Positions 3,147 through 43,794 of a stretch of 47,146 nt of DNA are shown piece after piece. The DNA is from a virus: UHGV virus genome UHGV-1361989; one strand, 5' to 3'. Position 1 is the stretch's first letter; the number at the start of each line of letters is the position of its first letter. The translations under genes and the position numbers were made by a program. The notes under the pieces are model-generated. The model ran no database searches and was not told the DNA's origin. It saw only the letters and a program-made list of their open reading frames with translations.

Positions 3147-5574
3147 TGTTCCTGCTGGCACTAATCTGTGGAGATGGCTGGAGAATTCCGGTCTTCCATC
3201 TGACATCAGGATTGCACTGAATGGCCGCATTTTTGGCCCTGATGATGAATTGTCGATATCGTTAAAGCAAAACGATATTGTTAACATTTACTGTCAGCCT
3301 CGCGGCGCCATTGGCGACCTTATCAGCACGATACTCAAGCCTGTAACTAAGGTTCTTTCTTTTCTGCTGCCAAAAGCATCAACGCCATCAACCAGCACTG
3401 GCACGACGGTTGAATCACCCAATAACAGCCTGAAATCGCAAACCAATATTGCGCGAAATGGAGAGGCAAGACCTGACAACTTCGGTCAGATAAGGGCATT
3501 CCCTGACCTGATTCAGGAATCTCTTTTTGAATACATTGACGATTTGAAGTACGTCACAGAGTTCATGAATTTTGGCCTTGGGAAATACACCATTTCATCG
3601 GTTAGATATGCAGAAACAAACCTCGGGTCTTTACCCGGTGCCACTCATGTCATCTACAATCCAGGTGATGTGATAGGGCAAATCATTGAGCCTTACCAGT
3701 TCGACGGACTTGATGGTCAGGAGGTTTTAGGGCTAAACGAGTCAGAAGATACCCCGATAGAGACGGCAACCACAACATCTGTTACCAGTGGGAATTATGC
3801 TGGCGGTCAGCTATTAATGGTCATACCAAAAAACACTGATTTCGATTACTTTATGGGACTATCTTTGCCTCACTCCGTATCATTAACAATAAATATTACC
3901 TACAACTCTACATCAGGGCCAGTTACTGAAAACATTCAGCTTAGTGGCAACATCATTTCAGCTGAGGAAACTGAGACAGGCGTCATTCCTGATATTCAGT
4001 ATTTTTATAATTTCACATTCAATAACCTGACTGGCGCAAATCTTGGCAACCTGACAGGCGCAACCATCAACAACACTTATTTCCAGATTGTGGATAATGA
4101 GGCGCTTGTTGTTGGCCCATATGTTGGAGCTGTGGAATCAACGCAGGTATGGGTTCATGTTCAGTCTGAGCTTGGTCCTACCAGTGGCACGGCAGATTAC
4201 CTGATCAAGGTATGGGCGGTTGATGATAATGGGGATGCCATTCCAGGAACCGAGGAGCAGCTTGCAGACAGTATTGACAACCCATTCAATCAGACAACCA
4301 AAACCTATTATCGCACGTATAAGTTAACTCCTGCTTATGGGTTGGCTAAGTATGCCATCAGCATTGAAAGGACAAACAACTCAAACTCTGGCAACCGCGT
4401 AACGTTGCAGGCGGCGCACGCCATCAACATCCGCGAGAATGTAGTTTATCCTGATGACACCCTTGTTAAAGTCACGGTGAAGGCCACGCTTCAGCCCACA
4501 TCAGTTACTGAGCGCAAATATAATGCGCTGATCACCCGCTGGACTATCGGATATAACAGAACAACCGGGACAGTAGACTATACGTTAACACCATCAAGAA
4601 GTTTTGCAGATTCAGTGCTGCATAACTGGCTTATTACTGCTGGTCAGCCTGAAAGCACGATTGACGTGGGAAGATTATATGAAATAGCTGATGCGCTGCC
4701 TGATGAGCGTCTTGGGTACTTTGATTACACCTTTGACGATGAGGATAAGTCCATTGGTGAGCGAATCCAGACCATCTGTGATGCCGCTCGCGTAACTGTA
4801 TTTTGGGATGATGGCGTCTTGTCTTTCTCAAGAGATGAGCAAAAATCAACCCCTGAAACTGTGTTTAATACCAGAAACACGCAGGCTGATGGCTATAAAA
4901 TGTCTTATGACATGACTTTGCCAGGCTCATATGATGGCGTAAGCGTTCAGTACCGTGATCCAAACACAAACAAGCAGGCTTACGTTTATTATAAAGTTGG
5001 GGCATCTGGTATCGAACCTGGAGAGCCAACTAAGCCGAAAAAATTCGACATGCTATATGTTCGAAACCTGTATCAGGCAACAGACAGGGCTATGCTTGAA
5101 TGCAATCGCCTCATGTACTCTCGTCGTGGAATGGAGATAAAAGCGCTTGCCGATGGAGAGTGGGTGAACGTTGGCGATATGATTTCTGTTGTCGACATTT
5201 ATGATTCTGTACAGCAGACTGGCGTTATCCGATCAAGGTCTGGAAACGTATTTACCACCAGTGAACAGCTCACAGCAGGAAGCGGCCTGTTTGTGGTCAT
5301 CACTGGCGCCAATGGGAATGTGTCAGAACTCCTGGCTTGTACCGTTACTGGATTGAATACATTCGAGTGCGCATTACCATCTGATTTCGAGTTAAACATT
5401 TTTGACGGTGTTAATGTTCAGTCAGAATCAAGATATGCCATCTCCACAGAGGTTGAGCTTGATTCAACATTATGGACAGTCAGCCAGAAAACTCCAGGCA
5501 CAGATGGTACAGTCTCACTTACTGTAACTGAGTACAATGATGCCATGTACGCCTACACCAACCCTGTTGCATGA
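3094..5574 (+). CDS. distal tail / central tail fibre protein (lambda J-like), N-terminus with gpI-like beta-grasp segment
   Basis: 826 aa, Thr/Asn/Gly-rich beta-structure. Position after K-like gene. RBS aagg upstream of ATG 3094. Confidence 0.55.
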
Positions 5575-17606: not shown

Positions 17607-17635
17607 TTGACGTAGATTGAGCGCCATCGTATAGT
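17607..17635 (+). promoter_or_regulatory. rightward early promoter TTGACG-17-TATAGT (conserved box TTGACGTAGATTGA)
   Basis: -35 17607-17612, -10 17630-17635. Leader agaggtgatgaag then ATG 17667. Confidence 0.6.
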
Positions 17636-17875: not shown

Positions 17876-18061
17876 ATGACCAAAGCAATCTACACGCGCA
17901 CTCAACTGGAACCAGAAATGGGCGCAGTGAAAGCGCAAAACTTTATGATGGCGCAGGCGATGCATTCATACAGCAACGGTAAGCGCGTCTGTCGCGTTTT
18001 TAGTGGAGAAGGAAAGCAGAGAGTGCTTGAGCAGGTTATCGTGTCATCTGGCGGAAACTAA
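17876..18061 (+). CDS. hypothetical early protein
   Basis: RBS ggag. Start 2 nt after previous stop. Confidence 0.45.
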   Translation: MTKAIYTRTQLEPEMGAVKAQNFMMAQAMHSYSNGKRVCRVFSGEGKQRVLEQVIVSSGGN

Positions 18062-18076
18062 ACCGGTTTAGCAACG

Positions 18077-18361: not shown

Positions 18362-18811
18362 ATGGATATCGAAATTAAAGAAGTTCAGGAAATTATTAAA
18401 AACCTTGAGAGTAGTGGCGAGCTATCAATCAAAGAGGAAAAATACCTCAAGGTGGCAAAGCTGTGCATGCAGGTGGTTGCGGAAAATGTGGGGATAAAGG
18501 GGGCAATCCATCAACTAAAAAATATTGATTATCAAAATGAAAGCATGAATGACGTGACATTGGCAGAAGAGATTGGGTTCAATGCAGCTGTGATGGCCAT
18601 GTATCGCTGGGTTCCTAAAACCCCCGGCTACGATGCGATCGGTGGCGGGGTTAAGGCTGATGGAGTGGATGAGTTTTCGAAAACTCTAGAGGGGGCCGCT
18701 GACATTTGTGGTAAGTCAAAAGCATGGGAGGCGCAAGAAAATTTACTTGATTTTGCTGAGCGTGGATTCGACTTCGCCAAGCAGCTGCGCGAGGGGGCTA
18801 ATCATGACTGA
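18362..18811 (+). CDS. hypothetical protein
   Basis: 149-aa ORF, tight spacing. Confidence 0.5.
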   Translation: MDIEIKEVQEIIKNLESSGELSIKEEKYLKVAKLCMQVVAENVGIKGAIHQLKNIDYQNESMNDVTLAEEIGFNAAVMAMYRWVPKTPGYDAIGGGVKADGVDEFSKTLEGAADICGKSKAWEAQENLLDFAERGFDFAKQLREGANHD

Positions 18812-21905: not shown

Positions 21906-23319
21906 AAGACTCTCAAGCGTTGCGATAGAAAAACTTGAGCAAGCAGTAGGCAATTCAACTGCAAAACCAGAGTCTTCTGTTTTCGGTATTGTCGATAAGC
22001 TATTGCCTGACGGTAAACCGAATGTGGTTAAGTGCCTTAAAATGACAGCCACTGGCGTGTCAGAAACAGACGAGAAGCCAACAATATTAATCCCTGAGCG
22101 AATGGAACTGCTGCTTTATCCTCGCCGTTTCAAGGTGTTCTATGGGGGTAGGGGCAGCGGAAAGACGGCTAACGTTGTTTCTTACCTTATAGAAAAGGCA
22201 AGATTCCGCAACAGCCGCGTCGGATGCTTCCGTGAGATACAGAACTCAATCAAAGAATCAAGCTATGCCGAACTGGTTGATGAGATAAACAGAAAAGGCC
22301 ACGCTCAGGAATATCGTTGCGTTGATGGTGAGATAACCCACCACACAACGAAATCAAAGTTTGTTTTCCGTGGTCTGTGGAGAAATATAACCGCCATCAA
22401 GGGTATGGCTGGACTTACAGATGTATTCTGTGAAGAATCTGAGAACATCAGCCAGATTTCATGGGATACGTTAATCCCAACGGTGCGCGCCTCTGGTTCT
22501 GAAATTATTATTGTTTTTAACCCAAATAAAGAGACGGACCCGACGTGGACCAACTTTGTTGAGCCTTACATCGGCAAGATGGTTGACGGCATATATCAGG
22601 ATGATGACATCGTTGTTGTTAATGTTAACTACGTCCACAACCCGTGGTTCACGGAAGAACTTAAGCAGCACATGAACCAGATGAAAGCTGTGGATTATGA
22701 TCGCTACCTTTGGGTGTATGAGGGCAAATTCAACAAACGTAGCGATGAACAGGTCTTCGGCGGCAAGTGGCGCGTTGATAACTTCGAGGTCAAGCCTGAG
22801 TGGCATGGTCCATACTTCGGCATGGACTTCGGATTCTCCACCGATCCAACCGCAATGGTTGAGGTTTATATCGAAGAATTACCGGGCGGGCGACGCAATA
22901 TTTATATTAATCGCGAGTACGGCAAGGTTGGGCTTGAGATTACCGATACGCCAGCTGCAATGGAGCAATCATTTCCTATGGCTAAGCGCGCACGATGGTA
23001 TGCCGACTGCGCTCGACCTGAAACCATCAGCCACATCAAGCGCGCTGGATTTGATATTCATCCCTGCAACAAATGGCCTGGTAGTGTTGAGGATGGCGTG
23101 ACGTGGCTCAGGGGTTGCGACAGCATCATTATTCACGACCGATGCACTGAAATGAAGAATGAGGCTGCGATGTATAGCCATAAGGTCGACAAGAACACAG
23201 GCCTTGTGCTGACTGAAATAGTTGATAAATACAACCACTATTGGGATGCGGTGCGCTATGCGCTAAATGACTACATCGTACAGCGCGGCTCTGGATGGAT
23301 TAGGCGGAGCAGGAGATAA
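21895..23319 (+). CDS. terminase large subunit
   Basis: Walker A GGRGSGKT, ATPase then nuclease-domain acidic residues. 474 aa. Confidence 0.9.
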   Translation: MARKRLSSVAIEKLEQAVGNSTAKPESSVFGIVDKLLPDGKPNVVKCLKMTATGVSETDEKPTILIPERMELLLYPRRFKVFYGGRGSGKTANVVSYLIEKARFRNSRVGCFREIQNSIKESSYAELVDEINRKGHAQEYRCVDGEITHHTTKSKFVFRGLWRNITAIKGMAGLTDVFCEESENISQISWDTLIPTVRASGSEIIIVFNPNKETDPTWTNFVEPYIGKMVDGIYQDDDIVVVNVNYVHNPWFTEELKQHMNQMKAVDYDRYLWVYEGKFNKRSDEQVFGGKWRVDNFEVKPEWHGPYFGMDFGFSTDPTAMVEVYIEELPGGRRNIYINREYGKVGLEITDTPAAMEQSFPMAKRARWYADCARPETISHIKRAGFDIHPCNKWPGSVEDGVTWLRGCDSIIIHDRCTEMKNEAAMYSHKVDKNTGLVLTEIVDKYNHYWDAVRYALNDYIVQRGSGWIRRSRR

Positions 23320-23321
23320 GA

Positions 23322-23350
23322 AAAAGCCCCGATAAAGGGGCGGTTTGGTT
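23322..23350 (+). terminator. weak rho-independent terminator
   Basis: GCCCC gataaa GGGGC followed by GGTTTGGTT. Confidence 0.35.
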
Positions 23351-30285: not shown

Positions 30286-30388
30286 CGACGAAAGTATCGT
30301 TATGGAGAACCAGAACACGGAGTGCGCCACAAAAAGAAAGATGACGATTTACGACTGGCAGGATTGGTATCGTGATAACTTTCAATAA
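30143..30388 (+). CDS. o-spanin (Rz1-like lipoprotein) embedded in i-spanin gene
   Basis: Signal peptide with lipobox TISGC. Begins inside 29905..30285 in another frame. Confidence 0.7.
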   Translation: MSPTRIVMCVFLMTTISGCANNPSTPTLPSAEMLGQVCELSKVAPKNSDESIVMENQNTECATKRKMTIYDWQDWYRDNFQ

Positions 30389-30416
30389 AAAAGCCCCGTA
30401 AAGGGGCTTTGTTTTA
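30388..30416. terminator. bidirectional rho-independent terminator
   Basis: AAGCCCC gtaaa GGGGCTT + TGTTTT. Confidence 0.6.
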
Positions 30417-31372: not shown

Positions 31373-31569
31373 TCACCTCTCAACGTAACTTTGTTTTTCT
31401 CATCTACGCTGAAATGCTCGCGCACAAACGCATACATTTCTTCGGCGCTCCATTCCCGCATTGCTACATAGCAGTGCGCGTAATATCTGACATCTCGCAG
31501 GCTTAACGGTTGGCGCTTAGCGATAATCTCAGTCAATACTTCCAGTGGTTCTTTGCGTTGTCTCGCCAT
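31369..31569 (-). CDS. hypothetical protein
   Basis: RBS caggag. First gene after leftward promoter box. Confidence 0.5.
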   Translation of the reverse strand: MARQRKEPLEVLTEIIAKRQPLSLRDVRYYAHCYVAMREWSAEEMYAFVREHFSVDEKNKVTLRGE

Positions 31570-38686: not shown

Positions 38687-38691
38687 TAAAA

Positions 38692-38716
38692 GAAAAGCCC
38701 CGAAAGGGGCTTTGTT
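38692..38716. terminator. bidirectional rho-independent terminator
   Basis: AAAGCCCC gaaa GGGGCTTT + GTTT. Confidence 0.65.
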
Positions 38717-38967
38717 TACTTATGGTCGCGTAAATTAATGAGGCCATCAATCAGCCGCTGAATTGAGGCGTTGTCTTTAAATGTGATATAAATTTCCGCC
38801 TCATCAATATCATCAACTTCATCGCCCGGCACCCCTCGATTTATGCTATTCGCAATAGCTATTAACTTTTCACCATGGCAAGAGCCAAATTTAATGCCAA
38901 CGTAACCATCGCCAAGACGGGCAACTTTTGAGCCGTCCTTCTGAGTAAAAACGCCATTCTTTTTCAT
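38716..38967 (-). CDS. hypothetical protein (83 aa)
   Basis: Trimmed to ATG with SD gagga 7 nt upstream. Confidence 0.4.
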   Translation of the reverse strand: MKKNGVFTQKDGSKVARLGDGYVGIKFGSCHGEKLIAIANSINRGVPGDEVDDIDEAEIYITFKDNASIQRLIDGLINLRDHK

Positions 38968-38993
38968 CACTAAATCCTCATCGGAATAACTGC

Positions 38994-39166
38994 TATTTTT
39001 TGTTCTTGATGTAATGCTGCTTTGCAATATACAGCATCTCATCAAATGATTTTCCGGTAACGCTTCGGCATTGTCGATAGTGTTGTAACGCAGCCTCTAT
39101 GGCCGCGTTGTCGATGCCTGGCAGTTTTTCGCGCAGGTTTTTCTCTATGAATTGTTCGGGGTTCAT
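38994..39166 (-). CDS. small ORF (57 aa)
   Basis: Not in ORF track. Start overlaps stop of upstream gene. Confidence 0.3.
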
Positions 39167-39423
39167 CTTTGCCGCCTAAATGAAATATTATCTCCACCTA
39201 TTGCAACATAACGGAATTTTCCGCAACCTTTTTTAACCCTGCACTTTCTGTATCGGTAGCGGCGCATTTCATGGTATGCCTTTTCTGTTAAAAGGAATGT
39301 GAATCCTTTATCAATGGCGCCAGCAACCTCAATAACAGCTTTAGACATTTGATCAATAATGTCTTTGGTGCTCATCGAAGACCAATCAACGCCATTACCG
39401 CTATTGATTAACCCTTTCATCAC
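39163..39423 (-). CDS. hypothetical protein
   Basis: 86-aa ORF, ATGA coupling to ParB-like gene. Confidence 0.45.
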   Translation of the reverse strand: MMKGLINSGNGVDWSSMSTKDIIDQMSKAVIEVAGAIDKGFTFLLTEKAYHEMRRYRYRKCRVKKGCGKFRYVAIGGDNISFRRQR

Positions 39424-40235
39424 AGCTTCTCCAGAATAGCCAGAACTTCACTTAACTCAGCGGAAGGAAGGCGCAAAAATTCTTCTGTCTCCTGTGCCAC
39501 ATGACCCTCAGCAACTACCATGTGATCTGCTTCTTTCAGCAACTGAATCAGGCGGTCAATCGGCTTAACTTTTTTGGCCTTGAGCGTTTTCGCCGTCACC
39601 TTATCTTTGCCCTGCGCTTTCGCTTCCTCAACGGCAGCATCAATAACGTTAACGGCATCATCGCCATGCTCGCGCGCCACTGCAACGGCGTTGGCATAGC
39701 TGATTTGGCCTGCATTGATGCGCTGCTTGATGGCATCAGGTACGTCACCAAGTGACAGGTGCATCTGAACATCAGAAACTGAGCGACCGACCTTCTTGGC
39801 GATTTCTTCATTCGTCCACCCGAATCCTTTCAGGCGCACATAAGCCTTTGCACGCTCAAGCGGGTCAAGCTGCTTGCCCTGACTGGAAGACACCATGAAG
39901 GCGATTTTATCCGCTTCATCGCCGGTGAAGTCTTTGCACTCAATGCGCGCAATTGGTATTCCGCGCTCAATGGCACGCAGTGCGCCAAGGTAACGATGCT
40001 GGCCGTCAAGAATCTTGATACGCTTTCCGTCGGCATCAGGAATAACAGTTAACGCAGGGATTGGCTGGCCTGATTCCCAGCACTGCGCGAAGTATTCAAC
40101 GTGCTGCTCATCGGCTTCGCGGATGTTGTACCCCGGCTCAAGATAAAGCTGATCGACAGGAACCTGATAACCTTTGTTGACCACGATTCCGCCGCGAGTT
40201 TCTTTGTCTGAGTAAATTTTTCCGAGAGATGTCAT
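39420..40235 (-). CDS. ParB-like nuclease domain protein
   Basis: ILDGQHRYLGA motif of ParB/Srx N-domain. Start placed at ATG 40235 behind SD tgaggaaaag. In-frame alternative 40271. Confidence 0.7.
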   Translation of the reverse strand: MTSLGKIYSDKETRGGIVVNKGYQVPVDQLYLEPGYNIREADEQHVEYFAQCWESGQPIPALTVIPDADGKRIKILDGQHRYLGALRAIERGIPIARIECKDFTGDEADKIAFMVSSSQGKQLDPLERAKAYVRLKGFGWTNEEIAKKVGRSVSDVQMHLSLGDVPDAIKQRINAGQISYANAVAVAREHGDDAVNVIDAAVEEAKAQGKDKVTAKTLKAKKVKPIDRLIQLLKEADHMVVAEGHVAQETEEFLRLPSAELSEVLAILEKL

Positions 40236-40242
40236 CTTTTCC

Positions 40243-40359
40243 TCACTTTGATAAACAGATTGCGCTGGCAATGGCGAATCCGATAACGATTAATGCCAGC
40301 TTGATTTTGAAATTGCGCCATGCTTTCAGGTCTTCTTTGCGGATTTCGTGGCGGATCAT
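40243..40359 (-). CDS. small TM protein (38 aa)
   Basis: RBS ggag. Hydrophobic LALIVIGFAIASAICL. Not in ORF track. Confidence 0.3.
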   Translation of the reverse strand: MIRHEIRKEDLKAWRNFKIKLALIVIGFAIASAICLSK

Positions 40360-40607
40360 TTTGATTCTCCGAGTGCTTTGGCGATTGCTGCTTTAGCTTT
40401 CGAGGTGTTAACGTAGACACATGCGCGAGCCTCCAAATCCAGCAGCGCTTCCAGCAATTCAGGCGCTGCGGCAATGAGCTGTGCATCATGGATGTTCTGA
40501 ATATCTTCTATCGTGTCGTATGGGCCCTCTGCTGGGATATCAACATCTATTGATGTAAGTCTATTGCGAAGTCTCCACGGCCCCGGCGTACCTTTGAACT
40601 CATTCAT
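40356..40607 (-). CDS. hypothetical early protein
   Basis: Leader agaggtgatgaagATG near-identical to rightward early gene 17667. In-frame upstream ATGs to 40625. Confidence 0.45.
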   Translation of the reverse strand: MNEFKGTPGPWRLRNRLTSIDVDIPAEGPYDTIEDIQNIHDAQLIAAAPELLEALLDLEARACVYVNTSKAKAAIAKALGESK

Positions 40608-40647
40608 CTTCATCACCTCTAACATTTATTGTTGTTTCTACGTCATC

Positions 40648-40676
40648 ACTATAACGACACCCTCAATCTACGTCAA
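40648..40676 (-). promoter_or_regulatory. leftward promoter TTGACG-17-TATAGT (conserved box TTGACGTAGATTGA)
   Basis: Reverse complement TTGACGtagattgagggtgtcgtTATAGT. Near-copy of promoter at 17607. Confidence 0.6.
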
Positions 40677-40837
40677 CACTTTATGATAAAATTAAACCAA
40701 CAACACTCACCCCGCGCTGTTCCGTCCTGAAAAACGTAAGGCGGCGAAATTGGATATAGCAATCGGCGTTATCGTCATAGCGTTTTCGCTGGTTCAGGTG
40801 TACAGATGCTGGAAGTTCATCATTCGGAGAATAATTA

Positions 40838-42838: not shown

Positions 42839-42916
42839 TGGTGCACCATACTGGATTCGAACCAGTGACCTACGGATTAGAAGTCCGTTGCTACTATCCT
42901 GCTGAGCTAATGGTGC
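42839..42916 (-). tRNA. tRNA-Arg (anticodon UCU)
   Basis: Reverse complement GCACCAT...ATGGTGC-A-CCA acceptor, anticodon stem ACGGA/TCCGT, loop CTTCTAA, T-arm ACTGG TTCGAAT CCAGT. Confidence 0.8.
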
Positions 42917-42933
42917 GTTGCGTTGTTGATTCG

Positions 42934-42962
42934 AATCTACACCACCAATAAAAACCTGTCAA
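42934..42962 (-). promoter_or_regulatory. tRNA promoter TTGACA-17-TAGATT
   Basis: Reverse complement TTGACAggtttttattggtggtgTAGATT directly upstream of tRNA-Arg. Confidence 0.5.
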
Positions 42963-42973: not shown

Positions 42974-43007
42974 GCGATTGTTTAGCTAAACACAGAGGAT
43001 TCTAAAC

Positions 43008-43763
43008 ATGGCTATTTGTACAAATGATAACGGCATCATCACAGGTCGCCAGTCTCTCATTGAGCTGGCTGATGGCTGCTGGGATGCTGTGCCAGCAGAG
43101 GAAGACTGGAAGTTTTTTGCTCCCATGACCTCAAAAGGCGTCGACTTCAGTCCAAGCACCACCACTTCAGAGGCTGATGATGGCGATGGCTTTGTTGCGA
43201 CGCTGGTCACTACCGCAGACCTCACCATTTCTGGTGATTTCGAAGTTCGCAAGGCTGACAAGGCTGATGAGTATGGCGTGCATAACCTCATCAAATACTT
43301 TGTCACCGAAGTAAAAGCGCGTCGACAGCCGTCGCTGTGGGTTCGTCAAACGACTGGTAACACCGTCGTGGTAGCTTACTGCAACATCACCGCGCTGAGC
43401 TACGATGGCGGCACCAACGACATTATCACCGGCTCAGTTGAATTCAAGCCGTATGATGGCTCTACCGTTGACGTGTCCAGCATCGAAGACCTGACGCTGA
43501 CTACTGATATCAACCCAACCCTGAGCGTTGCTTCCGGCTCCGCTCTGACGCTCGGCCCGGTAGTTGCGGCTGGTGGTGTCGAGCCTTACACCTATCAGTG
43601 GTATAAAGGCACCACCCCAATCAGCGGCGCGGCATCCGCCACCTACACCAAGCCTACGGCGGTAGCGGGCGACGCTGGCACGTACTTCTGCCGCGTGACG
43701 GACTCGGCAACCAGTCCTGATTACGTTGAATCCACCAGGTGCGTTGTTACCGTTACGTCATAA
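43008..43763 (+). CDS. major tail protein with C-terminal Ig-like domain
   Basis: 251 aa. C-terminus YTYQWYKG...TYTKP...AGTYFCRVTD is an Ig (Big_2/I-set-like) signature. Strong terminator follows. Confidence 0.7.
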   Translation: MAICTNDNGIITGRQSLIELADGCWDAVPAEEDWKFFAPMTSKGVDFSPSTTTSEADDGDGFVATLVTTADLTISGDFEVRKADKADEYGVHNLIKYFVTEVKARRQPSLWVRQTTGNTVVVAYCNITALSYDGGTNDIITGSVEFKPYDGSTVDVSSIEDLTLTTDINPTLSVASGSALTLGPVVAAGGVEPYTYQWYKGTTPISGAASATYTKPTAVAGDAGTYFCRVTDSATSPDYVESTRCVVTVTS

Positions 43764-43764
43764 A

Positions 43765-43794
43765 GAAAACCCCCGAAAGGGGGTTTATTTTTTC
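43765..43794. terminator. bidirectional rho-independent terminator
   Basis: AAACCCCC gaaa GGGGGTTT + ATTTTTT. Confidence 0.65.

Follow-up and report, generated by a model that had tools for sequence, protein, structure and literature searches.

Orphan ParB-fold proteins are increasingly recognized as nucleotide-gated switches, and their phage members are without assigned biology. The characterized orphans of canonical ParB architecture, namely KorB, VirB, BisD and Noc, are CTP-gated DNA clamps (PMC12704722), and three of them are transcription regulators (PMC12704722; PMC11790492). VirB of Shigella and BisD, from an integrative and conjugative element of Pseudomonas, have no partition role and are found on horizontally moving DNA (PMC12704722; PMC10653881). 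Here, we have analyzed the UHGV virus genome UHGV-1361989 (47,146 nucleotides; this whole stretch is called the window, and positions refer to it unless another genome is named) and focused on a leftward unit (40676→38694, minus strand), in which six open reading frames (ORFs) lie between a near-consensus sigma-70 promoter with its conserved leader and a bidirectional terminator. An initial annotation, made without database searches, had described this unit as a ParB-like nuclease operon. We find that its third gene (39420–40235, minus strand) encodes a 271-amino acid (aa) orphan ParB of canonical three-part architecture, which has no ParA partner and is very probably neither a nuclease nor a partition protein. 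The unit appears to be an ordinary accessory module rather than a nuclease operon, and the gene is already annotated in relatives.

The 2.7-kb region around the unit matched 200 phage records. The best of them (about 95% identity) were the Klebsiella phages KP591P1, KP591P3, vB_KpnS_MK54, BUCT610 and ZCKP8, and a large group of Salmonella, Escherichia and Shigella phages matched at lower identity. The paper that completed the BASEL collection assigns these relatives to the genus Skatevirus and the Klebsiella phages to its sister, Roufvirus. The central gene is named 'ParB-like partition protein' in RefSeq, with neighbors listed as hypothetical. The literature that we searched contained no functional study of this ParB family or of the Skatevirus/Roufvirus ParB, which agrees with the initial annotation that such proteins have no settled role.

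Profile searches and a structural model assigned the protein to the ParB/Srx fold, as had been proposed from its ILDGQHRYLGA motif. The Pfam domains HTH_ParB (PF17762; 43.3 bits against a cut-off of 22.6, 4e-11) and KorB (PF08535; 27.7 bits against 22.3, 2.6e-6) were both detected, PHROG 1033 matched with an E-value of 6e-87, and the TIGR00180 and Noc profiles matched below their curated cut-offs. The best sequence matches in the PDB were Spo0J (1vz0, E 1.7e-11), the ParB proteins of Caulobacter and Myxococcus, Noc and KorB. An AlphaFold2 (AF2) model (mean confidence, pLDDT, 83.6) was most similar in Foldseek to the Caulobacter ParB–parS complex (6t1f; TM-score 0.76, root mean square deviation 2.7 over 187 residues), followed by Noc (7nfu; 0.72), sulfiredoxin (6ky4; 0.69, for the N-domain alone) and KorB–KorA–DNA (0.62–0.65). 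The resulting domain order is an N-terminal ParB/Srx fold, a ParB/KorB helix-turn-helix (HTH) domain, a Lys-rich linker and a small C-terminal domain. The HTH DNA-binding domain (residues 122–203; 39627–39872, minus strand), with the recognition helix RSVSDVQMHLSL, was supported by both PF17762 and the structural match to ParB, KorB and Noc. The C-terminus had been described as a Lys/Ala-rich helical domain; the Lys/Ala-rich stretch exists as a linker (residues ~200–224), and what follows in the AF2 model is a small alpha/beta domain (helix/strand/strand/helix, residues 225–270). This domain had no Pfam match, and the fold matches in the PDB were C-terminally truncated chains, so that no counterpart could be found there.

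Three motifs distinguish the protein. The position of box II, the GxxR phosphate motif, is occupied by DGQHR (D77–R81; 39993–40007, minus strand), which aligns with GERR of Spo0J/ParB; G78 was invariant both in alignment A2 and in the wider alignment A4 (41 members at 26–52% identity), and R81 was invariant in A2 and present in at least 90% of A4. In the place of box III, SSSQGK (residues 116–121; 39873–39890, minus strand) aligns with the ENxQR motif of canonical ParBs (ENLQR), the form characteristic of the family being (S/T)SxQG. The initial annotation had proposed to look for GxxR and ParB-box residues; GxxR is kept, and ENxQR is replaced. Homologs down to 42% identity retain DG[QHS]HR and SSSQG[KR]. 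The third motif, GKDKVT (residues 209–214; 39594–39611, minus strand), lies directly after the HTH and represents a family motif GKxKVT, whose G209 was found in at least 90% of the 41 members. To our knowledge, no counterpart of this motif has been described in canonical ParBs. GxxR is the near-invariant NTP-binding element of the ParB-CTPase fold, and orphan ParBs frequently deviate at box III (PMC12704722).

DGQHR is similar to the DGxHR motif found in 'ParB-like nuclease' families and in DndB (TIGR03187, E 0.0023), and some ParB/Srx-fold proteins, such as Osa and the archaeal ParB-like nucleases, have reported nuclease activity. That the protein degrades host or competing DNA is nevertheless very unlikely: the proteins closest to it in structure and sequence are DNA-binding clamps, not nucleases, it carries a full HTH and a putative dimerization-type C-terminus, and no HNH or other nuclease domain or fusion was detected with Pfam and TIGR-type profiles. 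The word 'nuclease' in the initial annotation reflects a legacy domain name, given to what is a full-length, HTH-bearing ParB of KorB/Noc/VirB architecture. The likeness to DndB and other DGQHR-domain proteins, which are ParB-fold phosphorothioation regulators that bind ATP or GTP, includes the exact DGQHR pentapeptide and a weak TIGR03187 match over residues 61–105. However, the score is 17.7 bits against a cut-off of 58.85, the HTH_ParB architecture differs, and no dnd genes are annotated in the relatives KP591P1 and Bas79 (a BASEL phage).

Chromosomal ParB/Spo0J and Noc provide the best sequence and structure matches and have the same order of N-terminal, HTH and C-terminal domains. Such canonical architecture, together with the RefSeq/PHROG name, could mean that the protein truly serves partition in a plasmid-like carrier state. 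This idea is already largely refuted and, in our view, almost certainly wrong. In contrast to ParB/Spo0J and Noc, the N-terminus (MTSLGKIYSDKETRGG) has no ParA-interaction motif LG[KR]GL, no ORF in the window has a ParA-type Walker A motif (KGGxGK[ST]), no ParA is annotated in KP591P1 or Bas79, and no parS-like repeat could be found. The isolation papers of relatives describe them as lytic in title or abstract, and temperate relatives carry the gene in integrated lambdoid prophages, between CII and O. As these phages are therapy candidates, it is useful for safety annotation that neither a plasmid nor a lysogenic lifestyle follows from the label 'ParB-like partition protein'.

KorB of the IncP plasmid RK2, a ParB-CTPase clamp and global transcriptional repressor, is among the closest known systems. 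The two proteins share the N-terminal ParB fold, the HTH, the Pfam KorB domain and a structural match, and both are encoded by mobile elements among dispersed promoters. They differ in that the phage protein has box II GQHR, box III SSSQGK and a short helix/strand/strand/helix C-terminal unit, and in that neither an IncC/ParA nor a KorA/TrbA-like partner could be identified. Nor was a multi-copy palindromic operator found: GTAGATT, the sole promoter element present in several copies, is kept in Yersinia phage P400, which has no ParB (see below). With regard to a co-repressor of KorA/TrbA type, a 57-aa ORF of the same unit (38993–39166, minus strand; phrog_4439) co-occurs with ParB in the Skatevirus/Roufvirus lineage only. 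As a candidate partner it is not recognizably KorA-like or of HTH type: its three-helix model gave no significant fold match, and no family beyond phrog_4439 was found. VirB and BisD are also orphans of canonical architecture; unlike them, the phage protein gave no sequence-level match to either and is a dispensable component of a virulent phage.

On this basis, we tentatively favor the explanation that the protein is an NTP (nucleoside triphosphate)-gated, DNA-bound accessory regulator or organizer of early phage DNA transactions, acting within a dispensable early cassette; we consider this plausible, if just short of probable. The unit would be an early, dispensable accessory cassette of a virulent Klebsiella siphovirus of Roufvirus/Skatevirus type. 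The ParB-family protein would be made from an early promoter read by host RNA polymerase (RNAP) and would then dimerize; the dimer would bind DNA, probably that of the phage itself, through the HTH; and a nucleotide in the GxxR-containing, box III-divergent pocket would gate clamping or spreading, as in KorB, VirB, BisD and Noc. The outcome would be modulated early transcription and/or replication–recombination. We infer early timing, dimerization, nucleotide binding, clamp behavior, the phage-DNA target and the regulatory output from the architecture, conservation and context of the sequence.

Several observations weigh against this explanation. Pfam ParB_N (PF02195) did not match the 271-aa protein, and the TIGR00180 match (E 2.5e-11, residues 54–179) reached 43.7 bits, below the curated cut-off of 58.45. 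Box III is devoid of the Glu and Asn residues used in canonical ParB for Mg2+ coordination and hydrolysis, and thus recycling driven by hydrolysis may be absent. Neither sequence nor AlphaFold3 allows nucleotide specificity to be predicted (PMC12704722). The argument for early timing is the promoter type only, and the dispensability of the gene (see below) speaks against an essential switch function. The search for a DNA target also gave mostly negative results. No palindrome common to the clades was found near parB, except for terminators, and no k-mer was shared across clades outside coding sequences. Synonymous variation within parB was not suppressed. The largest recurrent family of palindromic half-sites in the window had 4 members, compared with a null maximum of 3–4. 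It should be noted that a single unrecognized site may still exist. Finally, ParB as the binder of GTAGATT, in the role of an autoregulator or a global early regulator, was rejected because P400, which has no ParB, keeps the element. A parS embedded in parB was likewise tried and dismissed: 10–16 nt are identical at RIECKDF, but synonymous identity there is 0.55 against 0.46 for the gene, and other segments of the gene reach 0.6–0.65.

To examine how far the family extends, an exhaustive phmmer search was made against clusters at 50% identity. It gave 7,411 representatives at E≤1e-3, 1,290 at ≤1e-10 and 59 at ≤1e-30, most of them 250–320 aa long and aligned over the N-terminal domain and the HTH. 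Among the 41 sampled members of alignment A4, the consensus keeps DGHHR, SxQG and GKxKVT; HTH_ParB matched all of them, the KorB domain four and ParB_N one, so surveys anchored on Pfam ParB_N probably undercount phage ParBs. The hosts range from Klebsiella to Pseudomonas, Xanthomonas and Vibrio, with the architecture kept. In temperate lambdoid relatives, the gene lies between CII and O/P in the P_R operon (CI-Cro-CII-ParB-O-P), and therefore the family is not specific to lytic phages, as the initial annotation had implied. In a Pantoea prophage the homolog is located between the replication genes and RusA-DUF968-Q, and in other genomes it follows a single-stranded DNA (ssDNA)-binding protein, VRR-NUC plus primase, YfdP-DUF2303, ERF or Dam. 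Thus, the family occupies early replication/recombination neighborhoods of virulent and temperate phages. A different arrangement was seen in L081 (4813–5844), a distant relative, where the ParB-like gene is followed by an ORF with a ParE-like toxin domain and one with a PAPS-reductase domain, with DUF2303 upstream; it recalls the ParB-like/PAPS-reductase pairs YbdM/YbdN and IbrB/IbrA.

Such neighborhoods suggest a second role, in which the protein would load on phage DNA, scaffold or protect replication and recombination intermediates, and recruit a clamp-like protein, RusA, O/P or primase without controlling transcription. The gene adjoins, and is often translationally coupled to, genes for lambda O/P, helicase, primase, ssDNA-binding protein, ERF and RusA, and a beta-clamp-like ORF belongs to the same cassette in 44 of 59 related loci. 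The position also resembles the lambda nin region, the dispensable accessory genes between the replication genes and Q, where the Pantoea homolog lies exactly, followed by RusA; the Skatevirus cassette combines ParB with a methylase, a clamp-like ORF and RusA, and the module is likewise dispensable and mosaic. In contrast to the nin region, the module of the phage analyzed here stands apart as an antisense cassette that has a promoter and a terminator of its own, located between capsid and head–tail genes. We regard such an organizer role as rather unlikely, considering that early regions of phages are generally devoted to DNA metabolism, which makes adjacency weak evidence, that the cassette in the window contains neither the clamp-like ORF nor RusA, that P400 has a clamp-like gene without ParB, and that no ParB relative is known to act in this way.

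The cassette itself is mosaic. Its order in the lineage is a replaceable first gene, a 38-aa ORF, ParB, a hypervariable slot, the 57-aa ORF, the beta-clamp-like ORF, RusA (in some loci) and a terminal 83-aa ORF; the corresponding order in Bas79 is a 207-aa ORF, ParB, methyltransferase, the 57-aa ORF and RusA. The 57-aa ORF lies 3' of ParB in nearly all loci whose ParB is at least 81% identical, and in L062. Its 39 variants show a purifying pattern, and its homologs are confined to the Skatevirus/Roufvirus phage lineage. ParB and the 57-aa ORF are the conserved core of the mosaic cassette. The initial annotation had treated all of the small ORFs as partners of ParB. This applies to the 57-aa ORF within the above lineage, whereas the 86-aa ORF that fills the slot in the window and the ORF of 83 aa at the end of the cassette are sporadic, being present in 4 of 59 and in about 10–12 of the related loci, respectively. 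The first gene keeps its position and is replaced in most relatives by unrelated genes or by versions of about 40% identity (35–59%). The 38-aa ORF, fixed directly 5' of ParB, was found in the Klebsiella clade only (63–100% identity).

The hypervariable slot is start-coupled to the ParB stop codon through GTGATG and contains at least 20 unrelated ORF clusters across the lineage loci L003–L059, including C5 (PF00145) and N6/N4 (PF01555) DNA methylases, an EndoVII-domain protein, a winged HTH protein, zinc-ribbon peptides and the 86-aa ORF. Methylases are coupled in this way in 9 of the 59 loci and in Bas79, and a Dam-type methylase lies just 5' of the ParB gene in L096. ParB–methyltransferase fusions are enriched in phages and prophages (PMC12704722), and ParB-dependent 5mYOX dioxygenases have been documented (PMC13229309). 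All this raises the possibility of an anti-restriction helper that activates or targets the methyltransferases of the slot, which we nonetheless judge quite improbable: a methylase is missing from the cassette in most loci, that of the window included, and ParB is kept whatever fills the slot. The ParB activators of 5mYOX have no DNA-binding domain and are paired with a dioxygenase. The 271-aa protein resembles them as a phage-encoded orphan ParB fold that lies, in some relatives, beside DNA-modifying enzymes; it has an HTH, however, the annotations of KP591P1 and Bas79 include no dioxygenase, and most cassettes are without a modifying enzyme.

With hypervariable genes on both sides of ParB, this early accessory cassette is also reminiscent of anti-defense loci, and the gene was dispensable in the isolation host. 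The enterobacterial hosts have a higher GC content than the phage (about 47%), and VirB provides a precedent for an anti-silencer of the ParB family (PMC10653881). The protein could therefore be directed at the host, binding the nucleoid, a defense system or an SMC-type complex, or counteracting H-NS-type silencing as VirB does. It is ParB, however, that is the conserved element and not the variable one, and PADLOC and the anti-defense families gave no matches. The broad host span (Klebsiella to Vibrio) with a kept architecture is better explained by a phage-intrinsic target. We consider host-directed action as improbable as the methylase helper. Nucleoid targeting, host DNA degradation and anti-defense, which had been proposed in the initial annotation, received no positive evidence, and the context is one of early replication/recombination.

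A natural deletion bears on the need for the cassette. The genome of Klebsiella phage VLCpiS13a (L082, ON602738; 3462–3647) lacks 1.04 kb corresponding to 40604–39567 of the window and with it the first gene, the 38-aa ORF and residues 1–223 of ParB. The promoter and the leader are kept up to the ATG; the deletion starts directly after the start codon, and a short new N-terminus is fused to the last 47 residues of ParB. Thus, the ParB module is dispensable for growth. The sibling phages S13b and S13c are intact, and VLCpiS13a is a ready ParB-null comparator to them.

The sigma-70-type promoter of the cassette (TTGACG-17 nt-TATAGT; 40648–40676, minus strand; 10/12 in a consensus scan) is preceded by an AT-rich sequence ATTTTATCATAA (40681–40692, minus strand), which is kept across clades, is also present at the 29209 promoter and at the promoters of L091, and may work as an UP element. 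Two copies of a GTAGA-type element accompany the promoter, one (TGACGTAGATT, 40665–40675, minus strand; GTAGATT) abutting or overlapping the -35, and the other (TGACGTAGAAA, 40635–40645, minus strand; TGAyGTAGAAA across clades) at about -3 to +8 of the predicted transcription start. A conserved 5' leader (40608–40634, minus strand) follows, which comprises AATAAATGTT (40621–40630) and the Shine-Dalgarno (SD) sequence AGAGGTGA (40613–40620). In 54 distinct loci, the UP-like ATTTTAnCATA, the -35 with its motif, TATAG and a 36-nt leader block were kept, and the spacer and flanks diverged; the same holds for the -35, the -10 and the leader between the Klebsiella and Salmonella clades. No known RNA element came near threshold in the leader when Rfam was searched. 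The host-type promoter suggests early expression of the cassette.

The sharing of promoter and leader with the rightward early operon, as originally proposed, is correct: the promoter at 17607 (plus strand) has in common with the cassette the extended -35 TTGACGTAGATTGAG (15/15), TATAGT and the SD region AGAGGTGATGAAGA (14/14). The term 'duplicated early promoter' understates the situation, as the window contains 8 sites similar to the extended -35 (1.06 expected) and 26 copies of the 11-mer TGAYGTAGWTW (4.25 expected), the latter being likewise enriched in Bas79 (23 against 4.8), where the sites include the replication operon. Roughly eight to nine promoters of the window carry the GTAGATT element, which clusters 5' of every leftward cassette, of the tRNA-Arg gene and of the rightward small-gene operon. 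Its positions are 14313, 17607, 23721/23738, 24080/24097/24121, 29174/29198/29227, 31600/31627, 40635/40665, 42934 and 44864/44899, frequently as a pair, at the -35 and close to +1. Bas79 retains the element, as do L092, L093 and P400 in the form GGTAGATT. The tRNA-Arg(tct) gene (42839–42916, minus strand) has its own promoter (TTGACA-17-TAGATT; 42934–42962, minus strand), whose -10 lies inside a near-perfect inverted repeat GTAGAT-TCGA-ATCAAC (42925–42940) that is kept in several relatives.

Several leads connect GTAGAT with ParB. A perfect GTAGAT-N4-ATCTAC overlaps the ParB promoter in L060–63 and L092, and two direct copies are present in that of L093, which makes three stand-alone ParB contexts (L060/L092, L061–63 and L093). 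The orientation of the hexamer is inverted at the equivalent promoter position in L061, pointing to a site for a binding factor rather than for RNAP. In L091, which has a different ParB recognition helix, the motif is switched to GCAGATAT. On the other hand, P400 is devoid of ParB (no match in tblastn; best profile E-value 0.31), and its promoters contain GTAGATT (14 copies, null 5.1) and GGTAGATT (8 copies, null 1.25). Thus, the element defines a promoter class that includes the ParB unit, without ParB being its (sole) binder. A 62–68-aa protein (phrog_14963), which co-occurs with the element in every background examined, P400 included, is at present the best candidate for a GTAGATT-binding regulator. 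In lambdoid relatives no GnAGAT inverted repeats were found, which is uninformative because their recognition helices differ.

Regarding this candidate regulator, the window copy (62 aa; 31384–31569, minus strand) is the first gene behind the P_31611 promoter, and its homologs of L092/L060 and L093 are divergently oriented neighbors of ParB across a GTAGAT-rich intergenic region. L091, a divergent relative (Logan contig of SRR15674903), has the same promoter layout with the element TGAYGCAGATAT (5 perfect copies against 0.19 expected; positions 4408, 9007, 17257, 17281 and 20024), partly as the palindrome CAGATATCTG, and two of its promoters have a different motif, CCGCATCG, in the +1 region.

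A further sequence, AATAAATG(TT), was found just 5' of the ParB unit in each of the nine backgrounds examined that carry ParB, including the window (40621–40630), L061 (3930–3946), L092 (9947), L093 (4929), Bas79 (19561) and L091 (9054). In L061–63 it takes the form of a perfect palindrome of 17 bp, ACATTTAAAATAAATGT, which adjoins the -35; the 17607 leader, similar in other respects, does not contain it. The sequence may be a site for ParB or, equally, an UP element or a trace of shared ancestry. A more ambitious view would be that the family represents a distinct class of NTP-gated DNA clamp, which loads beside its own gene, with AATAAATG(TT) or ACATTTAAAATAAATGT as candidate loading site, and spreads over phage DNA to insulate or time the early cassettes that lie antisense inside the late structural operon. 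The class would have its own pocket chemistry (DG[QH]HR, (S/T)SxQG for ENxQR, and GKxKVT) and comprise at least 1,290 clusters at 50% identity. We consider this version improbable; if true, it would mean KorB-like long-range control in virulent and temperate phages. Should the protein prove to be an ordinary accessory regulator under its own control, the finding would be a routine one. Perfect palindromes elsewhere in the window include GAGTTTTCGAAAACTC (18671–18686, 16 bp) and two of 14 bp, CTAAACCGGTTTAG (18058–18071) and TGTTTAGCTAAACA (42979–42992); the last, just 5' of the tRNA promoter, is loosely similar to the KorB operator TTTAGCSGCTAAA. In total, perfect palindromes are about as numerous as expected by chance.

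The system should be tractable. The protein is small and well folded, occurs in easily grown phages of Klebsiella, Salmonella and E. coli, including BASEL Bas77–81, and offers R81, the SSSQGK box and GKxKVT as targets for point mutations, and a natural deletion exists beside intact siblings.

The remaining features of the cassette are as follows. Six minus-strand ORFs, bracketed by promoter and terminator, extend from 40607 to 38716, as initially annotated. The first gene (83 aa; 40356–40607; phrog_1273, of the GPW...AAPELLEAL type) has the SD sequence GAGG 8 nt upstream of its start, and an alternative 89-aa reading from 40625 is possible. The second (38 aa; 40243–40359) has a hydrophobic C-terminal stretch, LALIVIGFAIASAICL, predicted to be a membrane anchor. 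The ParB gene is followed by the 86-aa ORF of the slot (39163–39423; 86 or 85 aa, with starts at 39423 or 39420), the 57-aa ORF and the terminal accessory ORF (83 aa; 38716–38967), which matched no family in Pfam, TIGR-type profiles or PHROG. ATGA couplings had been claimed for the unit, and such overlaps exist at the 83-aa/38-aa and 86-aa/57-aa junctions; the ParB/86-aa junction is instead a GTGATG (TGATG) stop/start overlap, and the other two junctions are gaps of 7 nt and 25 nt, each with an SD sequence for the downstream start. Variation by codon position (53/40/223) and a synonymous:nonsynonymous ratio of 5.8:1 indicated strong purifying selection on ParB. A third-position excess was also seen in the 57-aa, 38-aa (20/12/30) and terminal 83-aa ORFs; homologs were too few for this analysis of the first 83-aa ORF and the 86-aa ORF.

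The cassette is antisense, between the capsid genes and the head–tail genes, and is closed by a bidirectional intrinsic terminator hairpin, AAAGCCCCGAAAGGGGCTTT (38694–38713), shared with the convergent capsid-side gene. Similar terminators form a four-copy family (23318–23346, 30386–30414, 38689–38717 and 43762–43790) that closes leftward cassettes. Together with the common promoters, they give a repeated promoter–cassette–terminator architecture, antisense to and interleaved with structural genes, and this arrangement may provide recombination handles for cassette shuffling.

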